Below, one piece after another: positions 25,958 through 57,539 of a DNA stretch of 64,000 bases; the stretch's first letter is position 1; the number at the start of each line of letters is the position of its first letter. The translations under genes were made by a program, and so were the position numbers. The notes below the pieces were generated by a model that saw only the letters and a program-made list of their open reading frames with translations, did no database searches and was not told where the DNA came from. Source of the stretch: Patescibacteria group bacterium (GTDB lineage Bacteria > Patescibacteriota > Patescibacteriia > UBA9570). The DNA is taken from NCBI GenBank assembly GCA_041665365.1, contig JBAYIY010000001.1:104720-168719 (forward strand). Reading direction: 5' to 3'.

Positions 25958-25980
25958 ATCGCATCACTATGTCACTTGAA

Positions 25981-26027
25981 ATTAATCAAGTAGAGACGTG
26001 CCGGCGGCACGTCTCTACTTGATTAAT
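25981..26027. repeat. 47-bp near-perfect palindrome ATTAATCAAGTAGAGACGTGCCG-G-CGGCACGTCTCTACTTGATTAAT (copy 2 of the GTAGAGACGT palindromic family)
   Basis: 23-bp arms. Flanked by the direct repeat AATCGCATCACT (25966-25977 and 26044-26055). A T-rich tract lies on the plus side. Confidence 0.7.
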
Positions 26028-26049
26028 TTTATTTGGTTTGATAATCGCA

Positions 26050-29532: not shown

Positions 29533-29557
29533 AGAATTGATTTATTTATTAATCAAT

Positions 29558-29609
29558 GATATCACATTGTCTCGATTGCGACTAGAAAAGCCTACACTAG
29601 TGATGGGTA
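29558..29609 (-). promoter_or_regulatory. Conserved about 50-bp intergenic motif, copy A (upstream of FKBP gene)
   Basis: Plus-strand sequence GATATCACATTGTCTCGATTGCGACTAGAAAAGCCTACACTAGTGATGGGTA. On the minus sense it ends about 25 nt before the FKBP ATG and contains a TGTGATATC (-10-like) element. Confidence 0.4.
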
Positions 29610-29683
29610 CAATTCACAATTAGTATGATGAAGCTATATTTAAAAAAAGTCTGGATTTTGTTTAGGTTCCAGAAACCATGTTT

Positions 29684-30316
29684 CTACTCGCAGCCCTCAT
29701 CGACTACGAAGTCGCAATCGTTGTCCTGCCCGTCGCAGAGCTCGGGCGCTCCGGGGTAGACACTGTCGTCCCCTTCACTACAGTCGGCATCTTCGACCAT
29801 CAGCGCCCACCCATCGGGCTGAGTGCAGTCGACAACTCCATTGAACGGGTTGATGTACCCGTCCTCATCCTCATCCTCGTACCAGGTAGACGGGCCAGCA
29901 ACATCTGAGTCGGCGTCGTCACAGTCAGTGGAGGCCGCCACCCCGTCGCCATCGGAGTCGGGCCAAGTACCCTCGTCGATGTCTCCATCGCAGTCGTTGT
30001 CGAGACCGTCACACAACTCCGGGGCTCCGTTGTAAACCGTCGCATCGCCGTCGTCGCAGTCGGTCGCATCGGCCAGGTACCCATCGGGCTGAGTACACGA
30101 CATGATGGGACTATCCTCCTGACCATGACCGTCCCCGTCATCGTCAGAGTGCCAAATCTCAGCTAACTCTGACGTCACGCCTTCAATGCAAACATCGTTG
30201 AGGTTGCAGCCGGAAAGCAGAAACAAAGAAATAGAGATAAACATGAATACCTCACATGTTGGTGGCCTGGGGTTTGGCTGTGGTTGAAAGTAAAACCCCG
30301 CGCTTGCCATTACCAC
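29684..30316 (-). CDS. GC-rich secreted lipoprotein with MopE-like Cys-rich repeats (CDGxDNDCDGxxDEG)
   Basis: ORF of 210 aa. Probable start at the internal MFISISLFLLSGC lipobox (about 30247). Repeats ATDCDDGDATVYNGAPELCDGLDNDCDGDIDEG and SEGDDSVYPGAPELCDGQDNDCDFVVDEG. Local GC is about 58% against an AT-rich background. Confidence 0.55.
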   Translation of the reverse strand: MVMASAGFYFQPQPNPRPPTCEVFMFISISLFLLSGCNLNDVCIEGVTSELAEIWHSDDDGDGHGQEDSPIMSCTQPDGYLADATDCDDGDATVYNGAPELCDGLDNDCDGDIDEGTWPDSDGDGVAASTDCDDADSDVAGPSTWYEDEDEDGYINPFNGVVDCTQPDGWALMVEDADCSEGDDSVYPGAPELCDGQDNDCDFVVDEGCE

Positions 30317-30422
30317 TTGGTACTGAACAGTGCGGGACTTACTTTCGCCTCATCCACCAAACTATGCGGCTAAACCGAGCTTAGCCACATAGCCTGTGTT
30401 AGCTGATGTTGGGCTGATTTTA

Positions 30423-31001
30423 TTAGAATTTCAATGTTGAGATAATCTCTTTTAGGGCTTCATTATCTCTCTCAGTCCAATAAACTCTAAAAGCGACGAT
30501 CTGATTATTGTGTTTTGTGTAGTATCCTGTCACGTCGAACATATCGCTAACTGTGATTTTGACAAAATCATTGTCGCCGATTTTTACATTCTCATATTTA
30601 ATGCCGGTTTGTGCTGACATTTCTGCCAAGGTTGTTCCCGGCAAGTCGTAATCACTAATGATTTGTTGATCCACGGTGTTATTTGACGTTGTGGCTTTTA
30701 CTTGTACTTCTGGTATCTGACATGTGTCGCAAGCTTCAGGCGGATTTATATGTCTTTGATAACCTTCTTCTGTCCAAAGTCCTTTATCATCTGCTGTATA
30801 TCCTTTTTGATATGTGAATGAAAATCCGCTACCCTCAAATGTTTTGTCAGTTTCAACTGCTGGAACTGGCGTTTTGTCTTTTGTCTCTTGTGTAATTTGT
30901 GGGGTTTCCACTTCTTTGTTTTGTTGCCAGAAGTAAAAGCCACCCCCGACAACGATTGCCGTAATTATGACGGCGACAATGATTTTCCATGTTTGATTCA
31001 T
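30423..31001 (-). CDS. Membrane-anchored hypothetical protein
   Basis: 192 aa with an N-terminal TM (IIVAVIITAIVVGGGFYFW). Flanked by inverted 14-bp and direct 15-bp repeats (see findings). Confidence 0.45.
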   Translation of the reverse strand: MNQTWKIIVAVIITAIVVGGGFYFWQQNKEVETPQITQETKDKTPVPAVETDKTFEGSGFSFTYQKGYTADDKGLWTEEGYQRHINPPEACDTCQIPEVQVKATTSNNTVDQQIISDYDLPGTTLAEMSAQTGIKYENVKIGDNDFVKITVSDMFDVTGYYTKHNNQIVAFRVYWTERDNEALKEIISTLKF

Positions 31002-31081
31002 AAGAATTATTTAAATTATATATTAAGTCGCTTTTAAAATCAGCCCAACCTCATCCACCAAACATTCTGTGATGTGTACGC

Positions 31082-32476
31082 TTACTCTATCTGTAACGAT
31101 TCAATGATGGGTGCAATGTCACTATCATGCCCTTTTAATACAATATGATAACCGGCGGGCGCATTCGGGATGTAGTAGCTCCAGAATTCAAACTCACCGG
31201 TTACTTTCAACGCATCATGCCCATCTACTGTTGACCTGGTTACATCAATACGTGTGTGATCCGCTTCTGGATAGAGTGTGTTTTCTAGCTCTTCATCTGA
31301 TTGGGCAAAGTCAATACAATTAAAACAGAAATTAGCGCCAGTATCTCGATCACCCGTTTTTTCAAAATCTATGGTTTGGTACCAAAATAGAAATGTCCCT
31401 TCTTCTGCACCGTTTAGAGATGTATCTTCTCCGCCTTCAAACGTAATCGCGTAATATTCTCCTATCTTGGCTTCATCTCCAATTGCTGAAGGTTCAATGA
31501 TCGGCGCTCCCCAGGCGGGATCATAACAAAAGGATAACGCGACATCCGCTAGCGCGTAGCGTTCCCAGCCATCCGTGGCACAGGCAGTCTCAGCTGTATC
31601 TGCAGTAGCCACATTCAATTTCAAACTTGGTTCAACAACTTTTTTCACTTCGTCACAGCCAATCGGTAGCCCTGATCCATCGTCAAATCCACTGCCACAG
31701 GAATCTTCAAACAGCAGCCAGTCTGTATTGAGCATTGTAGGATATAAACTTCCTCCGGTAGCACATATATCCCAGTCATTTTTGAACTGATCTAGAGATG
31801 TATAACCTGCCGTATTAGGGATGAGTGTTACTTTAAAAGTATCTGCTGTTTGACTGGCCCCAGTATATTTAAAGTCATATGTTGTCATGACCGTGCCATT
31901 AAACATGGTAACCAATTGATCAAAATAGCCACTTTCATGTTGTGAACCACACTCAGTTGCGTTGCTCTGTAGTTGATCAGCAGTGTAATCAAATGGTGCT
32001 GTCGTTTTTGAAACCGCTACGGAAACGCCGCTGGTTGAATAAGACAGTGGCTCTGATTGTCCTATAGCCACTTTAAATTCTTGCAATAAGTTAGCAATGG
32101 TTACGGTGGCTTCATGATAGGTCGGAGCTGCATCGGCATCACCTCTCATTAAGGCAGTAGTTAAACGTTGAGAAATGTTCACGATGTCAATGGACGCATC
32201 ATCGTGGGTGGCAATGAAGGTTTGCAGATGGGTACTGACGCTAGACATAGCCGTCATAAACTCACTATAACTTGGAGCTGCATCGGCATCACCGCGTTGC
32301 ATGGCTGTCGACCATTCGGTGTCAATGTCGGTTAATTCAGGAGAAGTTGTGTCAGAAACTGTTGTAACTACGTTTGTATTTTTGACTGGATCCACCGGTG
32401 TTGGCGTGGTACAACTGGCTCCAATGAGAGTTATTAATCCGACTAAGCTCGTGATAAGATAGGTAGTGCTTTTCAT
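31082..32476 (-). CDS. Secreted lipoprotein, hypothetical, with internal duplicated M(Q/R)GDADAAP(S/T)Y segment
   Basis: 464 aa, lipobox LIGASCTT. Two copies of ALMRGDADAAPTY / AMQRGDADAAPSY. Confidence 0.45.
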   Translation of the reverse strand: MKSTTYLITSLVGLITLIGASCTTPTPVDPVKNTNVVTTVSDTTSPELTDIDTEWSTAMQRGDADAAPSYSEFMTAMSSVSTHLQTFIATHDDASIDIVNISQRLTTALMRGDADAAPTYHEATVTIANLLQEFKVAIGQSEPLSYSTSGVSVAVSKTTAPFDYTADQLQSNATECGSQHESGYFDQLVTMFNGTVMTTYDFKYTGASQTADTFKVTLIPNTAGYTSLDQFKNDWDICATGGSLYPTMLNTDWLLFEDSCGSGFDDGSGLPIGCDEVKKVVEPSLKLNVATADTAETACATDGWERYALADVALSFCYDPAWGAPIIEPSAIGDEAKIGEYYAITFEGGEDTSLNGAEEGTFLFWYQTIDFEKTGDRDTGANFCFNCIDFAQSDEELENTLYPEADHTRIDVTRSTVDGHDALKVTGEFEFWSYYIPNAPAGYHIVLKGHDSDIAPIIESLQIE

Positions 32477-32497
32477 AGATTGTATTGGTTAAATTGT

Positions 32498-32821
32498 TTA
32501 TTTAAGAGCTTGTTGAATAGTTTTAATGACTGCTTGCACGAATGGATTATTATGTTCAAGTTTGGGAAAAACTTTTTTTCCATTTCGCTCCTTTTGCAAT
32601 ATATTAGCGTGTACTAAAATTTTGATGTGTTGCGAGGCTAACGGTACGGAAATGTTGAGAATTCTGGCGATATCACCAACCGTCAGTTTGGGCTGTTTGG
32701 CAAGCACCATGAAAATGCGGTAACGATTCACGTCGCTGAGCACCTTAAATACCCCTGCCATGGTTATATCGGTTTCACTGAATGTTTGACGATTTTTACG
32801 CACTTCTTTTTCACTGAGCAT
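32498..32821 (-). CDS. ArsR/SmtB-family HTH transcriptional regulator
   Basis: 107 aa. LSDVNRYRIFMVLAKQPKLTVGDIARILNISVPLASQHIKILVHANIL is the ArsR winged-helix pattern. Confidence 0.75.
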   Translation of the reverse strand: MLSEKEVRKNRQTFSETDITMAGVFKVLSDVNRYRIFMVLAKQPKLTVGDIARILNISVPLASQHIKILVHANILQKERNGKKVFPKLEHNNPFVQAVIKTIQQALK

Positions 32822-32907
32822 TAAAATATAGTTTAATACTTAAACAAGTGTTAAACTTATACCACGCCATAATTTATCTGTCTAGAGCAAGAGTTCTTTC
32901 TGATATC

Positions 32908-33040
32908 GAGCTGGCTTGCCAGCCGGAGTAACGAACCTTGTGAGTTACGTAGGCTGGACGTACTGGTCTAGAACCTAGACCACCGAGGGTTTACTTGGGT
33001 TAAATTCGGAGTTACCAACAGGGTTGTTGGGTCACCTAAA
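32908..33040. repeat. Island repeat R1: degenerate tRNA-Gln 3'-end-like segment with hairpins (GCTGGCTTGCCAGC; GGTCTAGAACCTAGACC)
   Basis: Near-identical to 36017-36150 (R3) and partially to 34994-35052 (R2). Confidence 0.6.
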
Positions 33041-33066
33041 TGAGACAAACGAGACAGTATAAAAAG

Positions 33067-33120
33067 GATATCATACTGTCTCGATTGCGACTAGAAAAAA
33101 GCCTAGACTTGTGAGGGGTA
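33067..33120 (-). promoter_or_regulatory. Conserved about 50-bp intergenic motif, copy B (downstream of heliorhodopsin 1, upstream of ArsR gene)
   Basis: GATATCATACTGTCTCGATTGCGACTAGAAAAAAGCCTAGACTTGTGAGGGGTA. Preceded by the inverted repeat GAGACAGTAT(33051-60)/ATACTGTCTC(33073-82). Confidence 0.4.
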
Positions 33121-33142
33121 TTGTTGCGTAATATGCTGTAAA

Positions 33143-33913
33143 CTATACAGGGCGTAATGTACCGGCAAACACCTGCCAGGCCAGTAAAGATTTCGCCACC
33201 AGACTTAGGATAATATACACTTTTTCGCCATAGGTATACTCTTTCCATTTCCCGATTTTCTTATATTGCAATAACATATTCACTGCAAATGAATTGAAGA
33301 AGAGAAACATCGAGAAAAAAATCCAATACACAAAGGTGGGTGCATGATGATCCGCATCACCGGAAAAGGCTAAATAGCACGCAATCACAATCCAAGGGAT
33401 AGCTCCTGCAATGCAGCCAAAGATATAGGCTGTCCAATCAGTTTTTTTGGTAGATTGATTATGCAATTCCATCATCCAGCCAAACAAAATCATCATGGCA
33501 TTTAAGCCAAACATCAGCAGCAAACTAAATACATCATAGATACCAACCAACATACCAATCACTACAATCATCAGCGACGAGCTCAGTGAATATTCAACCC
33601 AACGAGCATAGTTCGCGCCCTTTTTTAAATGGTTCACATACCATTCATAGATACCGGGTAACGACACCATTAAATGTGCTAGGGCCGACAAGGCAAAAAA
33701 ACCTGCCACCAGGGGCCCTACCGATACAGTAGTTAACTCTTGCAAATTTTGTTGCAGCGTGAAGTTTTGAGTATTGAAACTTAAAAATGCAGTCGTTAGT
33801 GGTACTGCAAACGAATTGCTCAATACCAGTACAGCGACAGCTTGCACGGCATGCAAACAAAACATGACGATATTCCAGCGTCGCAAATTAAGAAATGTAT
33901 TTGGGTTCGGCAT
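33143..33913 (-). CDS. Heliorhodopsin (paralog 1)
   Basis: 256 aa, 7 TM. Heliorhodopsin family signatures: LRRWNIVMFCLHAVQA, ARWVEYSLSSSLMIVVIGML, MILFGWMME, FGCIAGAIPW, LFFNSFAV, YIILSLVAKSLLAWQVFAGTL (putative Schiff-base Lys in TM7). Confidence 0.85.
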   Translation of the reverse strand: MPNPNTFLNLRRWNIVMFCLHAVQAVAVLVLSNSFAVPLTTAFLSFNTQNFTLQQNLQELTTVSVGPLVAGFFALSALAHLMVSLPGIYEWYVNHLKKGANYARWVEYSLSSSLMIVVIGMLVGIYDVFSLLLMFGLNAMMILFGWMMELHNQSTKKTDWTAYIFGCIAGAIPWIVIACYLAFSGDADHHAPTFVYWIFFSMFLFFNSFAVNMLLQYKKIGKWKEYTYGEKVYIILSLVAKSLLAWQVFAGTLRPV

Positions 33914-33938
33914 AGTCCTCCGTATGCTTAATGATAAA

Positions 33939-34973
33939 TTAATTATTTACGGCTTGTACGATAATATAGAGCACCAATGCAGTAGTAATAGTAGCAGAGA
34001 CCATCATGCCAATAAATAATTGCCGTTTAATTGGTTTGGCCGAAAAACCTGAAAACTGACTCAAGTCATCAAGCTCTTTTACGTTAGCTACTAATTCATC
34101 TTTGGTTAAAATAGTACTTTTGCTGACATAACTATCGGTCACAAAGTGTTGAGCATAGGGAAAACACACCACTTGAATTGGTTGTGGTTCAAATAAACCT
34201 GGATACCAGCTATTGGTTTCAACTGTGACGTGTTCAAGCGGAATGCGTAGCGCCTGTTCAACTTCTAATGGATCAAACTGCAGCGAAAATACATTCGATT
34301 TACCATCCGATACGTTTGTACCATAATCGATCGATAAATTGCCTTCCAACCATAGTCGTTGATCGAGCGGCCACATGGTTCCAGCGGTACTATCTGCTTC
34401 TACGACGAGTTTACGAGAAGCATCGTCACGTTCCATATGTACGAGCACCTTGCCATGATGCGTAGTGGTCATCACTGAATTTGTGCTATTGGCATTCACT
34501 AAACCATGTTTGGGATCATAACTATTGGTATTGGTATCGTAATCTACAATCACCCAACTGAGTAACCCGGTGTGTTTATTTTCTGCAATCACATACATTT
34601 CAATTCTACTTCCCCAGAAGGCACTGGTATGGGCGGTCACGCAACCAAAAATAATATAGTACTCTGGTTCATCGTCAGCAAATATTTTGGTTTTGATCAT
34701 TTCATAATCTGCCGAGATTAAACTTTGTGCTAAGGCAACATTTTTAAGTTTATAACACAAAAACAGACTATACGGCTCCACCACAAAACCCATGTGCGGG
34801 ATGGTCTTGGCAGTACTGGTCATCAACTTCTTTTGAATTGGCTTGGGAATAAGCTTGGTAAAGGAATTTAAAAAGCTAATTGCCACCACGTCGGTTGGTT
34901 TCACTAAACGTTCTACACCTTTAATAAATTGAGTTGTGTCGATTTCCTCCATGATTGATGAGTAGTATAGCAC
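33939..34973 (-). CDS. Hypothetical protein with C-terminal TM anchor, co-transcribed upstream of heliorhodopsin 1
   Basis: 344 aa with no recognisable motif. Hydrophobic C-terminal segment FIGMMVSATITTALVLYIIVQA. A 25-bp gap separates it from the HeR start. Confidence 0.45.
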   Translation of the reverse strand: MLYYSSIMEEIDTTQFIKGVERLVKPTDVVAISFLNSFTKLIPKPIQKKLMTSTAKTIPHMGFVVEPYSLFLCYKLKNVALAQSLISADYEMIKTKIFADDEPEYYIIFGCVTAHTSAFWGSRIEMYVIAENKHTGLLSWVIVDYDTNTNSYDPKHGLVNANSTNSVMTTTHHGKVLVHMERDDASRKLVVEADSTAGTMWPLDQRLWLEGNLSIDYGTNVSDGKSNVFSLQFDPLEVEQALRIPLEHVTVETNSWYPGLFEPQPIQVVCFPYAQHFVTDSYVSKSTILTKDELVANVKELDDLSQFSGFSAKPIKRQLFIGMMVSATITTALVLYIIVQAVNN

Positions 34974-34984
34974 ATATCAATGAC

Positions 34985-35073
34985 GAGGACTTTTGAGAGG
35001 GTGAGGTTAGCTGGCTTGCCAGCCGGAGTAACGAACCTTGTGAGTTACGTAGGCTGGGGCGGTAGGGTTCGAA
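34985..35073. repeat. Island repeat R2 ending in an exact 21-bp copy of the tRNA-Gln 3' end (GCTGGGGCGGTAGGGTTCGAA, 35053-35073)
   Basis: GAGGACTTTTGAGAGG...GTAGGCTGG followed by CTGGGGCGGTAGGGTTCGAA, identical to 57466-57486. Confidence 0.7.
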
Positions 35074-35141
35074 AATCACCTTTGATTTCGAAGCTCATCC
35101 TAAATTATCAATAAATACCAGTGTCGCAGGTTAGTCGAGCA

Positions 35142-35681
35142 TCACAATGACGGTGTAGAAATGACGGCTTTGATCTGTGTGGAGTTGGCATGCCACCAGG
35201 CTCGGATCTCATCGGCTTTGCCGACCCCGCTAAACTGATTGACGGAAAATGCATTGCCTGCAAGCGCTGCTTGTTCGAGCTGTCTGCGCAGTTCTCCACC
35301 CACTCTGGAAGCTGCGTAGGAAGATATAGTTGTATTCAAGGCATCGTTTGACATCTCTCCCGTGAACATAATCGTACCGGTTGTCATCGTTGCGGAGTCC
35401 GTTGCCCCCATTGCGTTGAGTGACACGATGTCTGGGCTCCCATCGGCGGCGAGAAGGTCATGCAATTCAGATGCCTTCTCGGGTACGACCAAGCGGACAA
35501 GTACTTCTACCTGATCAGTGCCCTGACTCGCCAACATCGCGTCGAGATTCTGCTCGTACGCCGTCGCACCAAACGGTGGTTCTCCATTGCTTGCCGGCTG
35601 TGACGGAAGCCCAATTTTACAGCCAGTCGTGAGGCCGAGAAGGATGACGACGGTGGCGTACGCATATGTTCGCATAGGCAT
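35142..35681 (-). CDS. GC-rich lipoprotein, hypothetical
   Basis: 179 aa with lipobox LGLTTGCKI. Local GC is about 55%, far above the background. Confidence 0.45.
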   Translation of the reverse strand: MPMRTYAYATVVILLGLTTGCKIGLPSQPASNGEPPFGATAYEQNLDAMLASQGTDQVEVLVRLVVPEKASELHDLLAADGSPDIVSLNAMGATDSATMTTGTIMFTGEMSNDALNTTISSYAASRVGGELRRQLEQAALAGNAFSVNQFSGVGKADEIRAWWHANSTQIKAVISTPSL

Positions 35682-35756
35682 ATTTTAGGCCTGGAAAGCC
35701 AGTGCTGTCAACAGCCCGCGGAGACGGGCTATACAACCTGACAGGTCCAGAACCTA

Positions 35757-36000
35757 GACCACCAAGGCTTTATCGGTCAGCTTATTCCGGGTCTCTTGGC
35801 CAAGCATGCGCTTCTCGATCCATTTGTCTGATCTGCCTAGTTCCTGCCAATTTTCTCGAGCTCGATTAAGACCCAACTCTGGATCAACAGTTTCTTGTAA
35901 GCGCTCATAACCAACTTTAGCTAGCCATTGTTTAAATGGTTCTGCTTTACTAAAATACCATTTCTCCTCGGCTTCAGCCCAAATACGACGGACTGGGCTA
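35757..36000 (-). pseudogene. C-terminal gene remnant (about 80 codons, no start codon)
   Basis: The reverse frame translates to SPVRRIWAEAEEKWYFSKAEPFKQWLAKVGYERLQETVDPELGLNRARENWQELGRSDKWIEKRMLGQETRNKLTDKALVV*. The open frame runs into repeat R3 at about 36003. Confidence 0.3.
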
Positions 36001-36003
36001 TAT

Positions 36004-36160
36004 GAGGACTTTTGAGAGGGTGAGGTTAGCTGGCTTGCCAGCCGGAGTAACGAACCTTGTGAGTTACGTAGGCTGGACGTACTGGTCTAGAACCTAGACC
36101 AGTCGGGGTTTATTGGGATTAGATTTCGAGTTACCTACAGGGTTGATGGGTCACCTAAAT
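36004..36160. repeat. Island repeat R3 (same as R1 plus the GAGGACTTTTGAGAGG head)
   Basis: GAGGACTTTTGAGAGGGTGAGGTTAGCTGGCTTGCCAGCCGGAGTAACGAACCTTGTGAGTTACGTAGGCTGGACGTACTGGTCTAGAACCTAGACC...GGGTCACCTAAATGAGAC. Confidence 0.6.
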
Positions 36161-36185
36161 GAGACAGTTGAGACACTATAAAAAG

Positions 36186-36238
36186 GATATCACGTTGTCT
36201 CAGTTGCGACTAGAAGAAGCCTGGACTTGTGAGGAGTA
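36186..36238 (-). promoter_or_regulatory. Conserved about 50-bp intergenic motif, copy C (downstream of heliorhodopsin 2)
   Basis: GATATCACGTTGTCTCAGTTGCGACTAGAAGAAGCCTGGACTTGTGAGGAGTA. Confidence 0.35.
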
Positions 36239-36260
36239 TAGTGGCGTAATATTCTGCACT

Positions 36261-37031
36261 TTATACTGGACGTAATGTACCGGCAAATACTTGCCAAGCC
36301 AAGAGTGATTTAGTCACCAAACTCATGACAATATACACTTTTTCACCATAGGTATAATCTTTCCATTTCCCGACTTTCTTGTATTGCAATACCATATTTA
36401 TCGCAAAACTATTGAAGAAGAGGAACATCGAGAAGAAAATCCAGTAGACAAAGGTTGGGGCTTTAAATTCTCCTTCTCCAGCAAACGCTAAATAGCAGGC
36501 GATGATAATCCACGGAATGGCACCAGCAATGCAACCAAAGATGTATGCTGTCCAGTCCGTTTTTTGTGTGGATTGATTATGTAGCTCCATCATCCAACCA
36601 AACAGAATCATCATGGCATTCAAACTAAACATCAGCACCAGGCTAAAAACGTCATACATGCCGGTCAACATCGCAATGACCACAATCATTAACGACGAAC
36701 TGAAGGTATACTCTACCCAGCGAGCATAGTTAGCCCCTGACTTTAAATTCTTCACATACCATTGATACACACCAGGCAATGAAACTATTAAGTGGGCCAA
36801 AGCTGACAGGGCTAAAAATCCAGCAATTAACGGGGCAATCGGTACTGTGGTCAGTTGCTGTAAATCTTGGCCGAGACTGCGCGTTTGCGGATTAAATTCA
36901 ACAAACAATGTCGTCAACGGTAACGCAAAGCTATTACTGACTACCAGCATGATTGTGGCTTGGATTGAATGCAGGAAGAACATCGCAATGTTCCACCGGC
37001 GTAAGTTACGAAACTTGTTAGTTATTGGCAT
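36261..37031 (-). CDS. Heliorhodopsin (paralog 2)
   Basis: 256 aa with the same signatures as paralog 1 (LRRWNIAMFFLHSIQA, ARWVEYTFSSSLMIVVIAML, FGCIAGAIPW, YIVMSLVTKSLLAWQVFAGTLRPV). The 3' coding end and about 250 bp downstream are near-identical to paralog 1. Confidence 0.85.
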   Translation of the reverse strand: MPITNKFRNLRRWNIAMFFLHSIQATIMLVVSNSFALPLTTLFVEFNPQTRSLGQDLQQLTTVPIAPLIAGFLALSALAHLIVSLPGVYQWYVKNLKSGANYARWVEYTFSSSLMIVVIAMLTGMYDVFSLVLMFSLNAMMILFGWMMELHNQSTQKTDWTAYIFGCIAGAIPWIIIACYLAFAGEGEFKAPTFVYWIFFSMFLFFNSFAINMVLQYKKVGKWKDYTYGEKVYIVMSLVTKSLLAWQVFAGTLRPV

Positions 37032-37076
37032 AATCGTCCTCCTAAGTAGTGTATAAAATACTAGGCTTAGGATTAA

Positions 37077-37127
37077 GATATCATATTGTCTCGATTGCGA
37101 CTAGAAAAAACCTAGACTTGTGACGGC
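37077..37127 (-). promoter_or_regulatory. Conserved about 50-bp intergenic motif, copy D (about 50 nt upstream of heliorhodopsin 2 start; GGAGGA RBS follows)
   Basis: GATATCATATTGTCTCGATTGCGACTAGAAAAAACCTAGACTTGTGACGGCA. Confidence 0.4.
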
Positions 37128-37145
37128 ATGGCGGCGTAATACGAA

Positions 37146-38117
37146 CTAGCTTTTTTGAGTATGGTGATTAGCCTTTACGCTCTGATGGGCGTCCTGTAGT
37201 AAGGATTTTAGGGTAGAGGCAAAGGTTGGATGACCTAATAACTGTGGTAACTGTATGCTGCGAATCTCATCTGGCAAAGACAAGTTGGCAAATACTGACA
37301 CCTGACTCATTTTTAATTCTTCTACCGGAACAATATCAAGTAAAGAACCCTGCCTTTGCTCAAAGCGTTCTACTAGCTTAGTTAATTCCTGCTTAAACTC
37401 TTCGGGATATTGTTTAACATAACGTTTGTTCGTGAACCCTACTCTGCTAGCCAATTGAATGATATCTTGCGGTTGTATATTCTCACCTAAAAATCTACGA
37501 ATGAGAAGTACCTCGTTGGAAGTACCCTCTAGCATTGATAAATTATTTTGCGCAAAATCAATCCTTTTTTTATGAATAATAGCAACCATTAAGGCTTGCT
37601 GAGCGTAGGATCGGAAAGTCCCTTTATCATGATGATTTAATAATCTCAAAATTTCTTCAGCGGCCAAATCAAAATTACCAACCAGCAACTGACGCTCAAG
37701 ACCATAGTAGTATAAAAAGACATAACTTAGATTAGTTTCTTGAGTGACATCCCGCAACCAATTAATATATTGATACCGTTGTTCAGGCGTAAGTCCAGTA
37801 TATGATGGATAGTAAAGCTTATCCTGTTCAAGCTCATCATTTTGCTCCACTGGTAATTGCGTCCAAATTAAACTGGGTTCAGCAAAAAAATTATGTCGAT
37901 CTGGTATGTTAGTCCTTATACCGTCTGGACCCAGACTAATAGTGATATTGATGGTAGTGGCGGATTGAATTTTAGATGGGGGTTCATCTGTAAACCAAAG
38001 TAAGGACAGCGTAGGTTGAGGTATATGAAAAGAATTACGCAGTATAGACGGTATACTTGGCACTAGCGCTTGGTGCCTTGGAATTAAAGGTGAAAAAAGC
38101 TTTTTGAAAATGTTCAT
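37146..38117 (-). CDS. Hypothetical protein (last gene of five-gene defence-like operon)
   Basis: 323 aa. Its start overlaps the stop of the upstream HEPN-like gene by 4 nt. No confident domain; a TerB-N-like assignment is only a guess. Confidence 0.4.
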   Translation of the reverse strand: MNIFKKLFSPLIPRHQALVPSIPSILRNSFHIPQPTLSLLWFTDEPPSKIQSATTINITISLGPDGIRTNIPDRHNFFAEPSLIWTQLPVEQNDELEQDKLYYPSYTGLTPEQRYQYINWLRDVTQETNLSYVFLYYYGLERQLLVGNFDLAAEEILRLLNHHDKGTFRSYAQQALMVAIIHKKRIDFAQNNLSMLEGTSNEVLLIRRFLGENIQPQDIIQLASRVGFTNKRYVKQYPEEFKQELTKLVERFEQRQGSLLDIVPVEELKMSQVSVFANLSLPDEIRSIQLPQLLGHPTFASTLKSLLQDAHQSVKANHHTQKS

Positions 38118-38866
38118 TTTATAGATTCAAAATATTTTCTTGCTGCGCTTGTAAAATACAGGTAATCTTTTACTGCATTATAAACATTTTTCTGCTCTTC
38201 TTTGGAACAAGCAAATAAATGATTATTTTTAGACCAAAACCCTTGTTTAAACATTATGGATTTCTTTTTTACTTTCCCAAAATATAGATTCTTCCAAACT
38301 AAATTGCCTCTCTCAATATGATGCTTGCTACTCTTATCTTTTAGAATACCTTCCAAATAACCATTCGTGAAATAATTAGCACTATTATTGGCTGTGTTTT
38401 CTTCTAACTTCTTCCAGCCGATTTTTTTGATAAAATGATTGATACGTTGAGTATCACTACAGCTAAAAAATCTCAACTGCCAAACAAGTTCATCTAAAAC
38501 TAGTAACCAAGATCGTTTAGCATAAAATGGGAAATCAGGATAGCGAACAAAGTTATAAACACTTAAGTTCTTTACCAAATCAAGGCACTCTTTGTAGATG
38601 TTAAAAGATGGAATATTAGATTTACATAAATTATACAAATACTCTAGTTCATGCCATTGATTACCAGTTGCATTTCTGGGAACTTTTACGCCGTTGTATA
38701 AAAGTATCGATTTCAAATATTTCTCAATACTTTGATGAGCTAAAGTAAGGAACTGATCCAAGCACTGGTTGCGGAACAGTGTACGTGCAGCAATGTAGTC
38801 TCTATCAGCATAGGATCTAAAATCACTAGCTATCGCATTTCTATGGATAATACTTTCGTCGATCAT
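38114..38866 (-). CDS. HEPN-domain-like protein
   Basis: 250 aa. N-terminal DRDYIAARTLFRNQCLDQFLTLAHQSIEKYLKSIL is the HEPN helix-pair pattern, plus RNATGNQWH (a loose Rx4-7H). Confidence 0.45.
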   Translation of the reverse strand: MIDESIIHRNAIASDFRSYADRDYIAARTLFRNQCLDQFLTLAHQSIEKYLKSILLYNGVKVPRNATGNQWHELEYLYNLCKSNIPSFNIYKECLDLVKNLSVYNFVRYPDFPFYAKRSWLLVLDELVWQLRFFSCSDTQRINHFIKKIGWKKLEENTANNSANYFTNGYLEGILKDKSSKHHIERGNLVWKNLYFGKVKKKSIMFKQGFWSKNNHLFACSKEEQKNVYNAVKDYLYFTSAARKYFESIK

Positions 38867-40082: not shown

Positions 40083-41180
40083 CTATTTTTTTGTATGCGC
40101 TTCAAGTACGTCAATATAATTTTCCAAACGGCTAAGCAATTCATCATAAGTGACTATTACCACATCTTTCAATCCCTGCGTGAGTAGTCGCAAGTCATCT
40201 TTCTGCTTTTGCTCAGTTAAAATGGAAGCATTCCCTGCTAAGATAATGCCTCGTGGACGCAAGACCTGCAGTTGAATTTTATGTTTATCTATCAGATAAC
40301 TTCGAATAGCATCACCATGACGATGAACTTGGGACATGTAATTCTCGGTTTGAATAATAGCTTTAGAAATTTCTTTATCAAAGTAATAATTGCCTCGGCT
40401 ATCATCTGGCAGAAGCAGATTGGTATCCGGTTTTTTTATTTCTAGAATATCTAAATAGTTATCATGTGTTATTAAAGCAAAGTCAGGTAATTTTGTATTA
40501 CCAATTGCTACATTCATTTTCTCTATTGCTTTAATGTACCCTTGTTGAATAAGTAAAATATTATCCCGAATATATTTTTGCCACCACGACTCCGCATGCT
40601 TCGATTGGATGGCTTTCTTGAGATAAGCTGCCAACTCTTTCAATGATTTAATTTGTGCTTGGGCTTTTAAGAGGTTAACGCTACTAATTGATTCAGATGC
40701 AATATACCCCGGTAAAAACTTATTCAGAACATCCCTATCCTCTGAGGAAAGCTGAGGTATCATCGCTGGACTAATAACCTTAGATAATAAACCTGGCACA
40801 TATACTTGGATATCCTCAGCAGCAAAATGATTCGGATATGTTGCAGCAAAAAAATGATCAACAATATCATTTTTAATATCTCGGTTTCGTGTAATGCTCT
40901 CTCCACCCATTTTAGAAAGCAATGTTTTTGAAGTGTAAACAAGGTATTTTCCTCTAAAAAGATCTATGTGAGAATCTGAGTCTGTGATAATCCACTTATA
41001 ATTGCCTGGAAATTTACGTTGCAACTTTTGCAAAATATGTTTTCCAAAAGATATCATGCCATCCTTTTTTAAATTCGATGGCTTTTTGCCTTCGTAATAA
41101 ATACAAACTCCTTTAAGGGCATTACCATAAGTTCTATTCTTGATTTTGACATGTTTTAATTTTTTCTTTACAGCTCTCAT
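40083..41180 (-). CDS. DUF4263 (Shedu SduA-like) PD-(D/E)xK nuclease-domain protein
   Basis: 365 aa. C-terminal half ESWWQKYIRDNILLIQQGY...LPDFALITHDNYLDILEIKKPDTNLL...QTENY...RPRGIILAGN fits the DUF4263 D...E-x-K nuclease core and family pattern. Confidence 0.5.
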   Translation of the reverse strand: MRAVKKKLKHVKIKNRTYGNALKGVCIYYEGKKPSNLKKDGMISFGKHILQKLQRKFPGNYKWIITDSDSHIDLFRGKYLVYTSKTLLSKMGGESITRNRDIKNDIVDHFFAATYPNHFAAEDIQVYVPGLLSKVISPAMIPQLSSEDRDVLNKFLPGYIASESISSVNLLKAQAQIKSLKELAAYLKKAIQSKHAESWWQKYIRDNILLIQQGYIKAIEKMNVAIGNTKLPDFALITHDNYLDILEIKKPDTNLLLPDDSRGNYYFDKEISKAIIQTENYMSQVHRHGDAIRSYLIDKHKIQLQVLRPRGIILAGNASILTEQKQKDDLRLLTQGLKDVVIVTYDELLSRLENYIDVLEAHTKK

Positions 41181-42747: not shown

Positions 42748-44028
42748 ATGAATCAACCCATTCAAACCGTTCAGGTTAAGATAGTCGACCTAAACCCTGC
42801 CCCCTATAACCCGCGGCGCTGGGACGAAGCAGCCAAAACTCATCTCAAAGACAGCATTCAGCGCTTTGGCTTAGTAGATCCAATTATTGTTAATAATAAT
42901 CCAGACCGTCACAATATTGTTATCGGAGGACATTTCCGGCTGCACATTGCAAAAGAACTAGGATATGTAGAGGTGCCCGTGATCTATCTCAATATCGCTG
43001 AGGTTGCCAAAGAAAAAGAACTTAATCTTCGGCTCAACAGGAATGTGGGGTCATGGAACTTCGAGTTGCTTAAAGAATTTGATCTGAACCTCTTGCTCGA
43101 TGTTGGATTTGATGATGCAGACCTTTCTATCATTTGGGATGAAATGTTAGAGGTAGAAGATGATCACTTTCATACCCAAAAAGAATTCAAAGAAGCACAA
43201 CATACTACTATTCAAGCTGGTGATTTGTTTGCGCTCGGTGATCATCGCGTCATTTGTGGTGACGCTACTCAACCCGAGGTGATTCAAGCACTGCTAGGAG
43301 GTCAGCATGTACAGATGATTTACTCTGATCCCCCATACAACATTGCCTTAAATTATTCTAAGGGTATAAGCACCCAAGGCAAGTATGGCCATAGCCAGCT
43401 GAATGATCATCAATCCGATTCTGAGTATCAACTATTTTTACAACGTTCCCTAGAAACCGCGTTGACAGTACTGGATGATGCAGGTCATGTGTTTTACTGG
43501 TGCGATGAGCGATATATTGGCTTGTTGCAGCAACTGTATACCACAGTAGGGATCAACCACAAACGGGTCTGTCTTTGGATTAAAAACAACCACAATATGA
43601 CTCCCCAAGTGGCATTTAATAAACTATATGAACCATGTGTCTACGGCACTCGTGGTAAACCTTATCTGGCTGAAATTAAAAACCTGCACGAAATTCTGAA
43701 CAAGGAAGTGGGTACCGGCAATCGCGCTATTGATGATCTCCAAGACCTCTTAAATATTTGGTTCGAAAAACGCCTGCCTGGAATGCAATATACACACCCC
43801 ACTGAAAAGCCAGCTACCCTACATGAAAAGCCCATACGCCGTTGTACTAAGCCCGGTGACCGTATATTGGATAGCTTCGGAGGTTCTGGTTCAACGTTAA
43901 TCGCCTGTGAACAACTAAAGCGGGTAGCCTATGTAGCTGAAATCGACCCTATTTTTACACAATTAATACTCAATCGCTATGAACAACTTACTGGAAATAA
44001 AGCCAAACAGCTCAACGGAACTAAATGA
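42748..44028 (+). CDS. ParB-like nuclease domain fused to N6-adenine/N4-cytosine DNA methyltransferase
   Basis: 426 aa. N-terminus VKIVDLNPAPYNPRRWDE...IVIGGHFRLHIAKELG (ParB/Srx fold), DPPYN catalytic motif, C-terminal SFGGSGSTLIACEQLKR (SAM-binding motif I). This architecture is common in phage. Confidence 0.75.
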   Translation: MNQPIQTVQVKIVDLNPAPYNPRRWDEAAKTHLKDSIQRFGLVDPIIVNNNPDRHNIVIGGHFRLHIAKELGYVEVPVIYLNIAEVAKEKELNLRLNRNVGSWNFELLKEFDLNLLLDVGFDDADLSIIWDEMLEVEDDHFHTQKEFKEAQHTTIQAGDLFALGDHRVICGDATQPEVIQALLGGQHVQMIYSDPPYNIALNYSKGISTQGKYGHSQLNDHQSDSEYQLFLQRSLETALTVLDDAGHVFYWCDERYIGLLQQLYTTVGINHKRVCLWIKNNHNMTPQVAFNKLYEPCVYGTRGKPYLAEIKNLHEILNKEVGTGNRAIDDLQDLLNIWFEKRLPGMQYTHPTEKPATLHEKPIRRCTKPGDRILDSFGGSGSTLIACEQLKRVAYVAEIDPIFTQLILNRYEQLTGNKAKQLNGTK

Positions 44029-44749
44029 ACCACAACAGTTAGGTTACCACTACGTCATGTGTGGCGATGCTACTAATCCAACTGATGTCGCTCAACTGAT
44101 AGGAAAACAGAAAATTAATCTAGTACTGACGGATCCACCGTACGGAGTTGGCTATGTAGAAAGTAAACAAGGTTTTCAAACTCTTCGTCATGAAAAAGTG
44201 ATCGCTAATGACCACGTCCAAAGCGAAGAGGAATATCAAAACTTTATGGAGCAATGGCTAAAACTGACAGTGCCGCATTTAGCCAAACGGAATGCTTTCT
44301 ATGTATTTAACTCAGATAAGATGCTATTTGCCCTCCGCCGTGCCATGGATAACCACAAGTTACACTTTGCTCAGTTACTAATCTGGATGAAACAACATGC
44401 TGTTATTGGTCGCTTAGATTACCTGCCACAACACGAGCTCATTATGTATGGCTGGTACGGCACGCATCGTTTCTATAAAAATAAAGATAAGTCCGTCCTC
44501 TTCTGCCCAAAGCCGCAGCGGAGTCGCCTGCACCCAACCACCAAACCAGTGAGTTTGCTACGCCGCCTCATACTGAATAATACCCAGGTGGGTGACGTTG
44601 TGTACGATCCCTTTGGTGGCTCAGGGTCGACGCTGATTGCATGTGAACAAACCCAACGCCGTTGTCTCATGATGGAACTTGATCCAGATTATTACACGAC
44701 GATTCTACAACGCTTTGAGCAGCACATTTTGAAATATGGGGATCAATAA
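43979..44749 (+). CDS. DNA methyltransferase (DPPYG; beta-class N6/N4)
   Basis: 256 aa. HYVMCGDATN, LTDPPYGVGY, DPFGGSGSTLIACEQTQR. Paralogous to the MTase domain of the upstream gene. Overlaps that gene by 50 bp. Confidence 0.75.
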   Translation: MNNLLEIKPNSSTELNEPQQLGYHYVMCGDATNPTDVAQLIGKQKINLVLTDPPYGVGYVESKQGFQTLRHEKVIANDHVQSEEEYQNFMEQWLKLTVPHLAKRNAFYVFNSDKMLFALRRAMDNHKLHFAQLLIWMKQHAVIGRLDYLPQHELIMYGWYGTHRFYKNKDKSVLFCPKPQRSRLHPTTKPVSLLRRLILNNTQVGDVVYDPFGGSGSTLIACEQTQRRCLMMELDPDYYTTILQRFEQHILKYGDQ

Positions 44750-44751
44750 AT

Positions 44752-45189
44752 ATGGAACCTAAACACAAGAGAAGAATGACCATTGAAAAACGTCAGCAAA
44801 CCCAAAAGGACGCCTTAATTGAACTACTGAAGAAAACACCCATCATCCAAGCGGCTTGCCAAAAGATGGAGCTGGGACGGGCTACCTACTATCGCTGGCT
44901 AAAAGATGACCCAGCATTTGCAGAGGCAGTACACACTGCACTCGACCATGGCGTGGGACTGGTAAATGATATGGCAGAGTCGCAGTTAATTTCTGCGATT
45001 AAAGATCAAAATATGACGGCCATCATCTTCTGGCTAAAACATCACCACATGGCTTATACAACACGTATTGAATTGACGGGCGGTCAATCTACGGATCTGC
45101 CTGAATTAACTCCAGAACAGCAGCGTGTAGTTCAAGTTGCTCTTGAACAAGCACGACTCCTAAATAATGAGTCACCACAGATACTATGA
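44752..45189 (+). CDS. Terminase small subunit-like HTH protein
   Basis: 145 aa. AACQKMELGRATYYRWLKDDPAFAEAV is an HTH, with the gene directly upstream of terL and overlapping it by 4 nt. Confidence 0.45.
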   Translation: MEPKHKRRMTIEKRQQTQKDALIELLKKTPIIQAACQKMELGRATYYRWLKDDPAFAEAVHTALDHGVGLVNDMAESQLISAIKDQNMTAIIFWLKHHHMAYTTRIELTGGQSTDLPELTPEQQRVVQVALEQARLLNNESPQIL

Positions 45190-46733
45190 ACACAGCTGAA
45201 CAATTTGCGATTATCAGCAGCACAAAATCGGTACGGAAAGCTATAACAATGCAATCGCATTTTTGGTTTTTTCATGTTTACCTTAATCAATATATCACCT
45301 ACGAAACGGCGCCGTTTCATCGAGAAATGTTACAGCTGACTGAAAACCCACAATTGAGTTTATTGGTCTTTATGGCGTTCCGGGGTTCTGGCAAATCCAC
45401 TATCTTATCCTTGTCCTATCCCTTATGGGCCTTGCTAGGGAAGAAAAAGAAACGCTGTATCTTAATTTTAAGTCAGACCCAGTATCAAGCGCAGTCATTA
45501 TTGCAGCACATTAAACATGAACTGGAGGAAAATATTTTATTACGTAAAGATTTTGGACCATTTGTCACACGCACTACGCAATGGAGCGCGGACACCATTG
45601 TTATTCCTCGGTACGATGCCAAAATTATTGCTGCTTCTACAGAACAAAGTATTCGTGGAATTCGTCATGCAGAAGTAAGGCCCGACCTCATTATTTGTGA
45701 TGATATTGAAGATTTGTCATCAGTTAAAACCATGGAGTCAAGAAACAAAACATTTCAATGGTTAAGTGGTGAAATCATCCCTGCCGGTGACCGACACACG
45801 CAGACCGTCATTTTAGGAAATTTACTACATGAAGATTCCTTGCTGATGCGGATCAATAAACTGATTGATGATGACCGGATTGATGGTATTGTAAAACGCT
45901 ATCCCATCATCTCAGAGGGCAAACCTTTGTGGGCTGCTAAATTTCCTAACGAAGCGAGTCTGGTTCAGGAACAGCGTAAGATTGGTAATCCCATTGCCTG
46001 GAAACGCGAATTTGAATTACAAATTGTACCCGAAGATGGACAAGTCATTAGCTATGATGATATTCATTATTACGACACACTCCCTGAACCCAAGGAACCA
46101 GAACAGCGAGAGCTGGATGATTACACAAATGTTATCCGTTTAGAAAAGGTCTGTACTGGTATTGATTTAGCCATTAGTAAAAAAGACTCTGCAGACTATA
46201 CAGCAATGGTTTCTATTGAAATATTTAGTTTTGAGCACGAGGAAATTAAATTCTATGTGTTGCCGCACCCTATCAATAAACGTCTTAGTTTTGCCGAAAC
46301 GATTGAACAGGCGGATAATATTAGTAAACGTTTAGGTAAAACGCATCCTACTCAACTCTACGTCGAGCAGGTAGCTTATCAGGCTAGTGCTGTGGAAACC
46401 CTCAAGGAACGTCGTCTGCCGGTGGAAGGCATTACTGTGACCGGGGCAGATAAACGAGCCCGATTACAAATCGTCTCACCTTTGATTGAACAAGGCCAGA
46501 TCCTGTTTCCACGTACGGGTGCAGAGGATTTAATTGCCCAAATCGTTGGATTTGGAGTAGAGCGCCATGACGATTTACTAGACGCCTTTACCTTAGTCAT
46601 CATGCAGGTGATGAATATGCGGCCAGCTTGGCAGCTAAGTGATATGAATAATGAACCCATTAAACGGATGCGCATGTACAGTAAATGCGTACCAGGAGGC
46701 TACTTTGATCCCCCAAACTGGAACATTATCTAA
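45186..46733 (+). CDS. terL: Phage terminase large subunit
   Basis: 515 aa. Walker A FMAFRGSGKSTILS, Walker B LIICDDIED, and a C-terminal RNaseH-like nuclease (TGIDLAISKKDSADYTAMV ... DDLLDAF). Confidence 0.75.
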   Translation: MNTAEQFAIISSTKSVRKAITMQSHFWFFHVYLNQYITYETAPFHREMLQLTENPQLSLLVFMAFRGSGKSTILSLSYPLWALLGKKKKRCILILSQTQYQAQSLLQHIKHELEENILLRKDFGPFVTRTTQWSADTIVIPRYDAKIIAASTEQSIRGIRHAEVRPDLIICDDIEDLSSVKTMESRNKTFQWLSGEIIPAGDRHTQTVILGNLLHEDSLLMRINKLIDDDRIDGIVKRYPIISEGKPLWAAKFPNEASLVQEQRKIGNPIAWKREFELQIVPEDGQVISYDDIHYYDTLPEPKEPEQRELDDYTNVIRLEKVCTGIDLAISKKDSADYTAMVSIEIFSFEHEEIKFYVLPHPINKRLSFAETIEQADNISKRLGKTHPTQLYVEQVAYQASAVETLKERRLPVEGITVTGADKRARLQIVSPLIEQGQILFPRTGAEDLIAQIVGFGVERHDDLLDAFTLVIMQVMNMRPAWQLSDMNNEPIKRMRMYSKCVPGGYFDPPNWNII

Positions 46734-57384: not shown

Positions 57385-57413
57385 CAAAACAAAAATCCTC
57401 GCGGTGTACGAGG
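57385..57413 (-). terminator. Rho-independent terminator downstream of tRNA-Gln
   Basis: Minus sense reads CCTCGTACACCGCGAGG (hairpin) followed by ATTTTTGTTTTG. Confidence 0.5.
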
Positions 57414-57466
57414 ACTTTTGAGAGGATGAGGTTGATGGGTCACCTCCAGAACTTTCTGAAATCAAG

Positions 57467-57539
57467 CTGGGGCGGTAGGGTTCGAACCTACGAAATGGCG
57501 GCGCCAAAGGCCGCTGCCTTACCACTTGGCTACGCCCCA
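57467..57539 (-). tRNA. tRNA-Gln(UUG): tRNA-Gln (anticodon TTG)
   Basis: Reverse complement TGGGGCGTAGCCAAGTGGTAAGGCAGCGGCCTTTGGCGCCGCCATTTCGTAGGTTCGAACCCTACCGCCCCAG. It has a U1:A72 start, as in E. coli tRNA-Gln. Anticodon stem GCGGC/GCCGC, loop CUUUGGC, and a GTTCGAAC T-loop. CCA is not encoded. Confidence 0.8.

Follow-up and report, generated by a model that had tools for sequence, protein, structure and literature searches.

The stretch of DNA analysed here, 64 kb from a Patescibacteria group bacterium (contig JBAYIY010000001.1; hereafter the window, with positions counted from its first letter), carries four copies, A to D, of a short non-coding motif that we tentatively regard, with somewhat less than even confidence, as a reused, outward-reading promoter module within a recombination mosaic at a tRNA-Gln island. 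The portable module would be about 70 bp long, and its 3′ half would be laid out as an extended -10 promoter of the sigma-70 type, with a T-tract, a weak -35-like TAGTCG, a 17-nt spacer and TG-n-TATCnT in this order. Transcription would begin a few bases past GATATCnT, in the sense of the genes (minus strand). Copy D would drive the second of two heliorhodopsin genes (HeR2) and copy A the gene of an FKBP lipoprotein; from copies B and C, and from a full relative in another genome (locus L020), the transcript would traverse a non-coding segment of ~185 nt into an ArsR operon, a gene fragment and a rhodanese gene, respectively. The copies would be alike through recombination copying and not as separate sites maintained by a regulator, and they would sit partly inside and partly just outside an island that repeated recombination has built beside tRNA-Gln, with non-coding modules shuffled at a CCAGC core. 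The function of the module, the start of transcription at the motif and the manner of copying are what we infer from the sequence; the module itself would be ordinary in kind and restricted to a lineage.

The motif and its promoter-like layout

Copies A to D lie at 29558-29604, 33067-33113, 36186-36232 and 37077-37123, all on the minus strand (repeat search, family D7; 0 expected by chance), where a sequence-only reading of the same DNA had already placed them. A 20-nt core, TGTCTCGATTGCGACTAGAA, has four matches at up to three mismatches (three exact, one with two mismatches) against 0.00 expected from 100 shuffles, and an nhmmer profile of the motif returns the same four matches in the window, with E-values from 1e-19 to 1e-22. 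Neither the core pattern nor the profile finds a further copy in the other 56 kb, and the four are clustered in 7.6 kb. The sequence-only reading was also right about the consensus, about the ribosome-binding site GGAGGA that follows copy D and about the inverted repeat of copy B (33046-33060/33073-33087; 15 nt, 93% complementary). The length of ~50 bp that it gave is too short: aligned with their flanks, the copies share a non-coding unit of ~70 nt, which begins ~20 nt further 5′ with TATTACGCC... and takes in an invariant T two bases past GATATC. In gene sense the motif reads approximately TATTACGCCACTATACCCCTCACAAGTCTAGGC-T(4-6)-CTAGTCGCAATCGAGACA-nnn-TGATATC-n-T, with a T-tract whose length differs by 2 nt among copies, a 10-bp inverted repeat (TCACAAGTCT/AGACAATGTGA) and short dyads (CTAG...CTAG and TCACA...TGTGA), the first CTAG being missing in A and C. 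Past GATATCnT the similarity breaks off abruptly, A and D continuing with sequence that differs from that of B, C and L020, and this end coincides with the point where the transcript would begin.

Between pairs of copies the identity is 83-96% over the entire length, spacer included, which argues for copying rather than for independently maintained operator sites. Copies A and D, with unrelated genes downstream, are ~88% identical over ~50 nt (BLAST, 88% over 50 nt; 87.5% over 48 nt), and the values are 88% over 67 nt for D and B and 86% over 57 nt for A and B. Taken with the clustering and with the single recombination tract that holds B and C (see below), this whole-length identity speaks against the regulon that had been proposed. 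The copies do stand upstream of genes and in their sense, but this discriminates little, since each of them also lies 4-75 nt downstream of the stop codon of the preceding gene and every gene between 29 and 41 kb has the minus-strand orientation. In the same vein, the distance of 25-50 nt from the start codon that had been noted holds for A (25 nt) and D (45 nt), the only copies at promoter distance, but neither for B, which is 245 nt from the ArsR ATG, nor for C, which precedes a start-less fragment of an open reading frame (ORF).

The promoter-like register is common to all copies. The dinucleotide TG lies one base upstream of the -10 hexamer, reading TGATATCnT in A to D and L020 and, in the same register, TGTTATTCT at L033, a heliorhodopsin locus of a different genome. 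The five full copies (A to D and L020) do not vary in TG, in the first three bases of the hexamer (TAT) or in the T two bases past GATATC. The hexamers TATCAT, TATCCT, TATCTT and TATTCT match the consensus at four to five of six positions, always including A2 and T6, and TAGTCG, with the T-tract before it, stands exactly 17 nt upstream of the hexamer in every copy and in L033. At A and D, a consensus scan finds no alternative minus-strand promoter-like site between motif and start codon. In B and C the same scan gives an overlapping second site in the same direction at the end of the motif (Table 1), and L020 has TCGAGA-17-TATAGT there by inspection; in all three this second site matches the consensus at 9 of 12 positions, better than the motif's own site. 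Similar hexamers and TG extensions are found in other likely promoters of this genome, for example TTGACG-17-TATCAT in front of the gene at 60428-60841, TGCTATACT in front of ORF344 and TGGTATATA in front of tRNA-Gln.

Locus L033 is informative about which positions are kept. It reads TTTTTTCTAGTCG-N14-TG-T-TATTCT, ending 25 nt before the heliorhodopsin ATG, and the pattern TTTTTTCTAGTCG-N14-TGnTATnnT has a register identical to that of the motif with a different spacer; a terminator hairpin takes the place of the motif's 5′ half. The 35-nt local alignment outscored 300 of 300 shuffles and lies 27 nt from a significant match to a hairpin of the larger element described below (E 5e-5). L033 also shares the synteny DPBB-FtsE-FtsX-tRNA-Gln, its heliorhodopsin gene following within ~350 nt after tRNA-Gln. 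Positions of -35, TG and -10 kept while the spacer drifts are the pattern predicted for a promoter. The suggestion of the sequence-only reading that the motif is a common promoter or operator, or else an RNA element of the 5′ untranslated region, is thus a reasonable one in its promoter part, given the extended -10 layout and the L033 register, and finds no support for the RNA or for an ArsR operator.

Several observations weigh against a promoter. TAGTCG matches TTGACA at 3/6 positions and the -10 mostly at 4/6, and the consensus scan made no call here; TGnTAnnnT is no more than ~2-fold enriched in upstream regions (9/29 regions). Among the copies, conservation is as high in the spacer and the 5′ half as in the putative promoter elements, so that within the genome it does not single out a promoter. 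The support from L033 is one sequence, and the strict orthology of its upstream region with copy D is weakened, as the L033 heliorhodopsin is of the HeR1 and not the HeR2 type. Besides, the motif is absent at nine other heliorhodopsin loci, and no Shine-Dalgarno sequence follows copy A before the FKBP gene. A motif-like match upstream of the heliorhodopsin gene at L026 (p = 0.003) was discarded, as it fails correction for ~60 tests.

The sequence-only reading had also named the adjacent ArsR-family protein as the candidate binder. That the motif is an operator of this regulator, defining a regulon, appears very improbable to us. An ArsR/SmtB-family gene, coding for 107 aa, does lie 245 nt downstream of copy B and the motif has short dyads, but the half-sites are 23-25 bp apart with a spacing that varies by 2 nt, the first CTAG is lost in A and C, and the 6.9-kb contig that carries L020 has no ArsR gene. 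ArsR/SmtB operators are typically 12-2-12 imperfect inverted repeats of fixed short spacing that overlap the regulated promoter, and we know of no functional link of FKBP, heliorhodopsin or the gene fragment to metal or sulfur sensing. Moreover, the ArsR gene has a promoter-like site of its own in the consensus scan (TTAACA-18-TATATT, ending 4 nt before its ATG) and is probably leaderless. An imperfect palindrome, TTTAACACTTGTTTAA, seen by eye, overlaps this site (32822-32860, minus strand) and looks like a more natural autoregulatory operator than the motif.

The composite element and the recombination tract

Copies B and C are the 5′ end of a non-coding element of ~185-250 nt, in which ~190 nt past the motif are shared (families D1, D2, D5 and D8). 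This larger repeat (D1/D2) was absent from the description given by the sequence-only reading, which had itself named membership in a larger mobile repeat as what would refute a regulatory role; such membership is found for two of the four copies, B and C. The body of the element after copy B is 88-90% identical to that after copy C and to that of L020. The modules occur in varying combination: the motif alone (A, D), a tail module alone (34985), a hairpin fragment alone (35741) and the full set (B, C, L020). The element contains one GAGACA and two TGTCTC boxes. Its ends are not joined by an inverted repeat in B, C or L020, where hairpins are internal only, and flank alignments gave no consistent target-site duplication. 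A miniature inverted-repeat transposable element was discarded, given the lack of terminal inverted repeats, the clustering of the copies and, by the scan described below, a single copy in one other metagenome-assembled genome (MAG). So was descent of the body hairpin from a decayed tRNA-Gln 3′ end, since 10 mismatches in 24 positions are at chance level (57 matches in the window versus ~32 in shuffles). Between the tail module and the hairpin fragment lies a gene remnant (35777-36003, minus strand), a start-less open frame of 84 codons (…WYFSKAEPFKQWLAKVGYERLQETVDPELG…RMLGQETRNKLTDKALVV*) without a Pfam or NCBIfam match; as it runs from the one module into the other, it is, on sequence grounds, best described as a truncated gene trapped between two junctions.

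The relation of B to C is set by the genes in front of them. HeR1 (33143-33913) and HeR2 (36261-37031), both in the minus-strand region, are different ancient heliorhodopsin types, with 78% protein identity and fourfold-degenerate sites saturated at 32% identity. In sliding windows, the identity of synonymous codons is 0.3-0.5 over codons 1-195 and 0.73-0.86 over codons 196-240; the non-coding element is 91% and the motif 84% identical between B and C. The last ~60 codons (~196-256) thus belong, together with the motif and the element, to one younger tract of recombination or gene conversion. B and C are therefore one event and not independent, and their similarity needs no selection. A segmental duplication of heliorhodopsin plus motif, which we had considered as the full account of B and C, was replaced by this tract in view of the saturated fourfold sites. 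HeR1 is 87-91% identical to the heliorhodopsins at L033 and L026, and HeR2 87% identical to those at L028 and L034. The latter two belong to an operon of a 337-aa ORF and heliorhodopsin; the window's homolog of the 337-aa ORF precedes HeR1 instead.

The same tract is also an argument for neutral debris left in a hypervariable island by duplication, gene conversion and illegitimate recombination, with promoter-like features that would be coincidental in AT-rich intergenic DNA. The identities of motif and element within it are about those of synonymous sites in the adjacent last ~60 codons (0.62-0.86), with no excess conservation, the copies are clustered among a mosaic of repeated fragments, and the promoter match is weak. 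Against debris stand the L020 element, 89-90% identical over 185 nt among unrelated genes of another genome, the promoter-appropriate distance of A and D from start codons, and the retention in L033 of specifically the -35-like, TG and -10 positions. On balance we consider debris unlikely, while granting it an appreciable chance.

Locus L020 came from a scan of GTDB with one genome per species, in which a 16-base core gave 22 loci and a 28-nt pattern also matched in L020 alone. It lies on a 6.9-kb contig (CAZSXL010000062.1), where motif and body stand between an unrelated membrane-protein gene and the rhodanese gene, and no other nucleotide similarity links this contig to the window. The deposited record calls the contig "uncultured Gammaproteobacteria", but every named homolog of its TMEM43-like protein belongs to Kerfeldbacteria, Patescibacteria or ACD_41C bins. 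These homologs place L020 in the same lineage as the window; the contig is probably misbinned, and transfer between phyla was rejected on the same evidence. The window itself is part of a 365-kb metagenome contig (ENA assembly ERZ27249449, contig k141_1447249), and the organisms named for its heliorhodopsin homologs suggest a bacterium close to Candidatus Kerfeldbacteria. At 99.7-100% identity, loci L024 and L025 represent the strain of the window itself and were not counted as independent evidence. Metagenome contigs and viral contigs (two patterns each) and phage and plasmid collections gave no motif match.

The body may alternatively be a functional RNA of ~115-190 nt behind B, C and L020, either a small RNA or a cis-regulatory leader (of the ArsR operon and the rhodanese gene) with the motif as its promoter or 5′ end. 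A fold of the 256-nt element reaches z = -5.6 in gene sense versus -3.2 on the opposite strand. The 7-10-bp hairpin GGTCTAG-GTT-CTAGACC is present in all copies and is preserved in the fragment at 35741 by a change that gives a G-U pair in gene sense only; the 3′ hairpin of L020 is changed on both sides (GCTGGC/GCCAGC versus GGGCT/AGCCC), and TAACC follows it in L020 and copy C, not in copy B. However, with three sequences most pairs are invariant (covariation term 0.01), Rfam gives nothing at the gathering score in the region and only noise at E <= 5, and the body has neither a following terminator nor a conserved ORF. It also splits at CCAGC into modules that occur separately, which favours a mosaic at the DNA level. 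The motif itself is unstructured: its consensus fold has -4.3 kcal/mol and the covariance check gave 0 compensatory pairs, with variable positions breaking the predicted pairs, so that the RNA element of the 5′ untranslated region that had been suggested was dropped. We regard a functional RNA as rather improbable.

The tRNA-Gln island and its CCAGC junctions

The cluster of copies adjoins a ~20-kb island (~37150-57400) between HeR2 and tRNA-Gln, the latter being part of a DPBB-FtsE-FtsX-tRNA-Gln block at 57.5-60.4 kb. The island carries genes for TerB_N (37146-38117), HEPN (38114-38866), Shedu SduA_C (40083-41180), two ParB-N/N6_N4 methylases (42748-44749), a terminase fragment (45186-46733) and a large serine recombinase (46807-48120), and it looks like a phage remnant with defence genes. 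The 5-mer CCAGC, with which tRNA-Gln ends, is found at every junction between non-coding modules, with the arms reassorted. It lies at 57466, 36072, 36029, 35053, 32953 and 32910 of the window, at 4380 of L020 and at 9914 and 9643 of L033; the pairings are tRNA end with f1, tRNA end with tail, hairpin with tail, tail hairpin with f3, tail hairpin with f1-like, and hairpin with other sequence (L020, L033). A common core combined with reassorted arms suggests that site-specific recombination has acted repeatedly at a tRNA-type core. Among the window ORFs scanned, Pfam and PHROG surveys gave no tyrosine integrase.

These junctions raise the question whether the motif itself belongs to a recombination site. 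It would then be the distal part of an attachment (att) arm, the ~185-nt segment up to ...GTCCAGC being one arm that ends at the crossover core, with the three GAGACA/TGTCTC boxes as arm sites of the recombinase, the copies as cassette borders that successive integrations left behind and HeR2 as the cassette between D and C. Such an arm would account for the CCAGC core and its reassorted arms, for the exact 21-nt tRNA-Gln 3′ end that borders a GC-rich cassette, for D and C flanking HeR2 as direct repeats 891 bp apart, for the sharp boundaries, the internal 10-bp inverted repeat and the boxes of the element, and for the location in or next to an island with a large serine recombinase. However, the motif neither has CCAGC at its borders nor bears significant similarity to the tRNA, features that its neighbouring modules do have. 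Its T-tract would lie inside the putative site and varies by 2 nt, which is hard to fit to a fixed recombinase geometry. Neither the remainder of the arm nor the core accompanies the solo copies A and D, L033 retains the promoter-like half only, and besides the missing tyrosine integrase nothing motif-like lies beside the serine recombinase gene. We find an att arm unlikely. Integration by serine integrases is not known to leave full-site direct repeats, and the motif as att site of the island's own large serine recombinase was rejected both on this mechanism and for the lack of anything similar beside the gene.

A bolder combination would make the ~185-nt unit (motif, body and hairpin up to CCAGC) an undescribed non-coding mobile or integration module of Kerfeldbacteria-like Patescibacteria, a proposal to which we give little credence. 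The unit would be similar to an att arm and have its own outward promoter, and heliorhodopsin and other genes would be captured, duplicated and re-expressed at the tRNA-Gln hotspot with no integrase alongside.

Further features of the region are listed here and in Table 1. A GC-rich (~52%) cassette (35053-35740, minus strand) has the tRNA-Gln 3′ end on one side and the element-hairpin fragment on the other; its gene (35142-35681), without family match, is preceded by a near-perfect TTGACA-18-TAAAAT that ends 1 nt before the ATG, so that its mRNA is probably leaderless. A LOOT RNA (Rfam RF03000; 57123-57250, minus strand; 71.3 bits versus a gathering score of 46.4) lies just past the terminator of tRNA-Gln, at the edge of the island nearest the tRNA. 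A 192-aa gene (30423-31001) is flanked by 37-nt inverted repeats (30340-30425 and 31035-31071; 76% complementary) that contain CCTCATCCACCAAAC at 30349 and 31050, the reverse complement of which occurs at 56206 (56206-56230); the left repeat copy lies within an imperfect palindrome of ~70 nt with GTTGGGC/GCCCAAC ends, which loosely recalls integron attC. Two genes with MopE-type metal-binding (CxxCDxDxD) repeats (29684-30316 and 50685-53516) have a GC content far above the ~40% background (up to 59%, at 51-53 kb) and were probably acquired from a high-GC donor; in the larger one, M23 peptidase and FG-GAP domains occur as well, together with tandem repeats of 132 nt (51325-51697). Finally, the space between an RmuC gene and the ABC-ATPase gene upstream of it contains a perfect 25-nt palindrome with arms 1 nt apart (25979-26029), which may terminate transcription in both directions or bind a protein.

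Table 1. Motif copies, element modules and tRNA-Gln sequences in the window
Feature	Position	Strand	Remarks
Motif copy A	29553-29623	-	75 nt past the stop of the GC-rich MopE-repeat gene, 25 nt before the FKBP lipoprotein ATG; nhmmer E 1.1e-19
Promoter-like elements of A		-	-35-like 29579-29584; TG 29563-29564; putative -10 TATCAT 29556-29561
Motif copy B	33060-33134	-	~9 nt past the HeR1 stop; 5′ end of the composite element; nhmmer E 1.2e-22
Promoter-like elements of B		-	-35-like 33088-33093; putative -10 TATCCT 33065-33070; overlapping second site TCGAGA-17-TATACT 33084->33056
Motif copy C	36179-36252	-	~9 nt past the HeR2 stop; 5′ end of the second composite element; nhmmer E 2.5e-22
Promoter-like elements of C		-	-35-like 36207-36212; putative -10 TATCCT 36184-36189; overlapping second site CTGAGA-17-TATAGT 36203->36175
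Motif copy D	37072-37142	-	4 nt past the TerB_N stop, 45 nt before the HeR2 ATG; nhmmer E 5e-21
Promoter-like elements of D		-	-35-like TAGTCG 37098-37103; TG 37082-37083; putative -10 TATCTT 37075-37080; then GGAGGA ribosome-binding site
Element body after B	32953-33059	-	Two TGTCTC boxes, box AGGTGACCCAACAACC, hairpin TGGTCTAG-GTT-CTAGACCA, terminal core ...GTACGTCCAGC
Element body after C	36072-36178	-	Modules as after B, terminal ...GTACGTCCAGC
Tail module	36004-36071	-	CTACGTAAC...GCTGGCAAGCCAGC/TAACCTCACCCTCTCAAAAGTCCTC; last 26 nt match the tRNA-Gln 3′ flank; families D5, D11
Tail module after B	32910-32952	-	Past GCCAGC joined instead to tRNA-flank-like TCGATATCAGAAAG sequence
Solo tail module	34985-35052	-	Directly after the displaced tRNA-Gln 3′ end, before the ORF344-HeR1 operon; D5, 100% identity, E 3.3e-13
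Solo body-hairpin fragment	35741-35776	-	GGTCTAGGTTCTGGACCTGT; left border of the GC-rich cassette; D8, E 1e-4
tRNA-Gln 3′ end copy	35053-35076	-	21 nt exact, 2 mismatches over 24; right border of the GC-rich cassette (35058-35740)
tRNA-Gln (57466-57539) and 3′ flank	57408-57539	-	Flank AGGTGACCCATCAACC, TCATCCTCTCAAAAGTCCTCGT common to the element, then intrinsic terminator; island anchor

Comparison with known systems

To our knowledge, promoter architecture and gene regulation in the candidate phyla radiation (CPR) are almost unstudied, and no promoter rules have been experimentally established in Patescibacteria. If the module is an active promoter, it would be a concrete case of promoter reuse in a CPR bacterium and would show how acquired or duplicated island genes, such as the second heliorhodopsin and the FKBP lipoprotein, gain expression. 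A candidate native promoter would also have modest practical value for CPR genetics. The case further warns against reading co-regulation into motifs repeated upstream of island genes, since copying can account for them.

The motif resembles extended -10 (TGn) sigma-70 promoters in its TG one base before a hexamer with A2 and T6, its weak -35 and the A/T-rich tract upstream, and differs from them in a hexamer, TATCnT, that matches at only 4/6 positions. Its surroundings recall tRNA-linked islands with att scars, as the cluster adjoins a ~20-kb island and holds an exact, displaced 3′ end of the tRNA along with recurring copies of its flank; the motif itself, unlike the att repeat of such islands, has no tRNA similarity and has its borders off the crossover core. 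Integron attC sites were dismissed, since the motif contains no RYYYAAC/GTTRRRY pair by inspection and the Pfam surveys gave no integron integrase.

Composite intergenic mosaic repeats, such as pneumococcal BOX, enterobacterial BIME, neisserial NIME and Correia elements (PMC3049150), are similar in that short modules occur alone or combined, are intergenic and co-oriented with genes and form stable hairpins; some of these families create promoters or stimulate downstream genes. They appear to differ in number, reaching tens to hundreds of copies chromosome-wide against very few here: within the 64 kb analysed of the 365-kb contig the motif forms a cluster of four, and a second MAG has one. The element has, moreover, no terminal inverted repeats and no evident target-site duplication, and its modules join at a tRNA-type CCAGC core and not in a regular array.

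The closest known description is that of putative mobile promoters, defined by at least 80% identity over at least 50 nt upstream of non-paralogous genes (Matus-Garcia, Nijveen & van Passel 2012; PMC3575422). Unlike these, the motif copies lie in one 7.6-kb stretch and are not dispersed, two of them are within a longer composite element, and the motif reaches 25-45 nt from the start codon, compared with a survey window of -150 to -50 (PMC3575422). The likeness is nevertheless extensive: A and D, A and B, and D and B all reach at least 80% identity over at least 50 nt, and the downstream genes (FKBP_C, heliorhodopsin and ArsR HTH_5) are non-paralogous, B and C being counted as one event. As with putative mobile promoters, no insertion sequence is attached, and the sequence is shared with a related genome.

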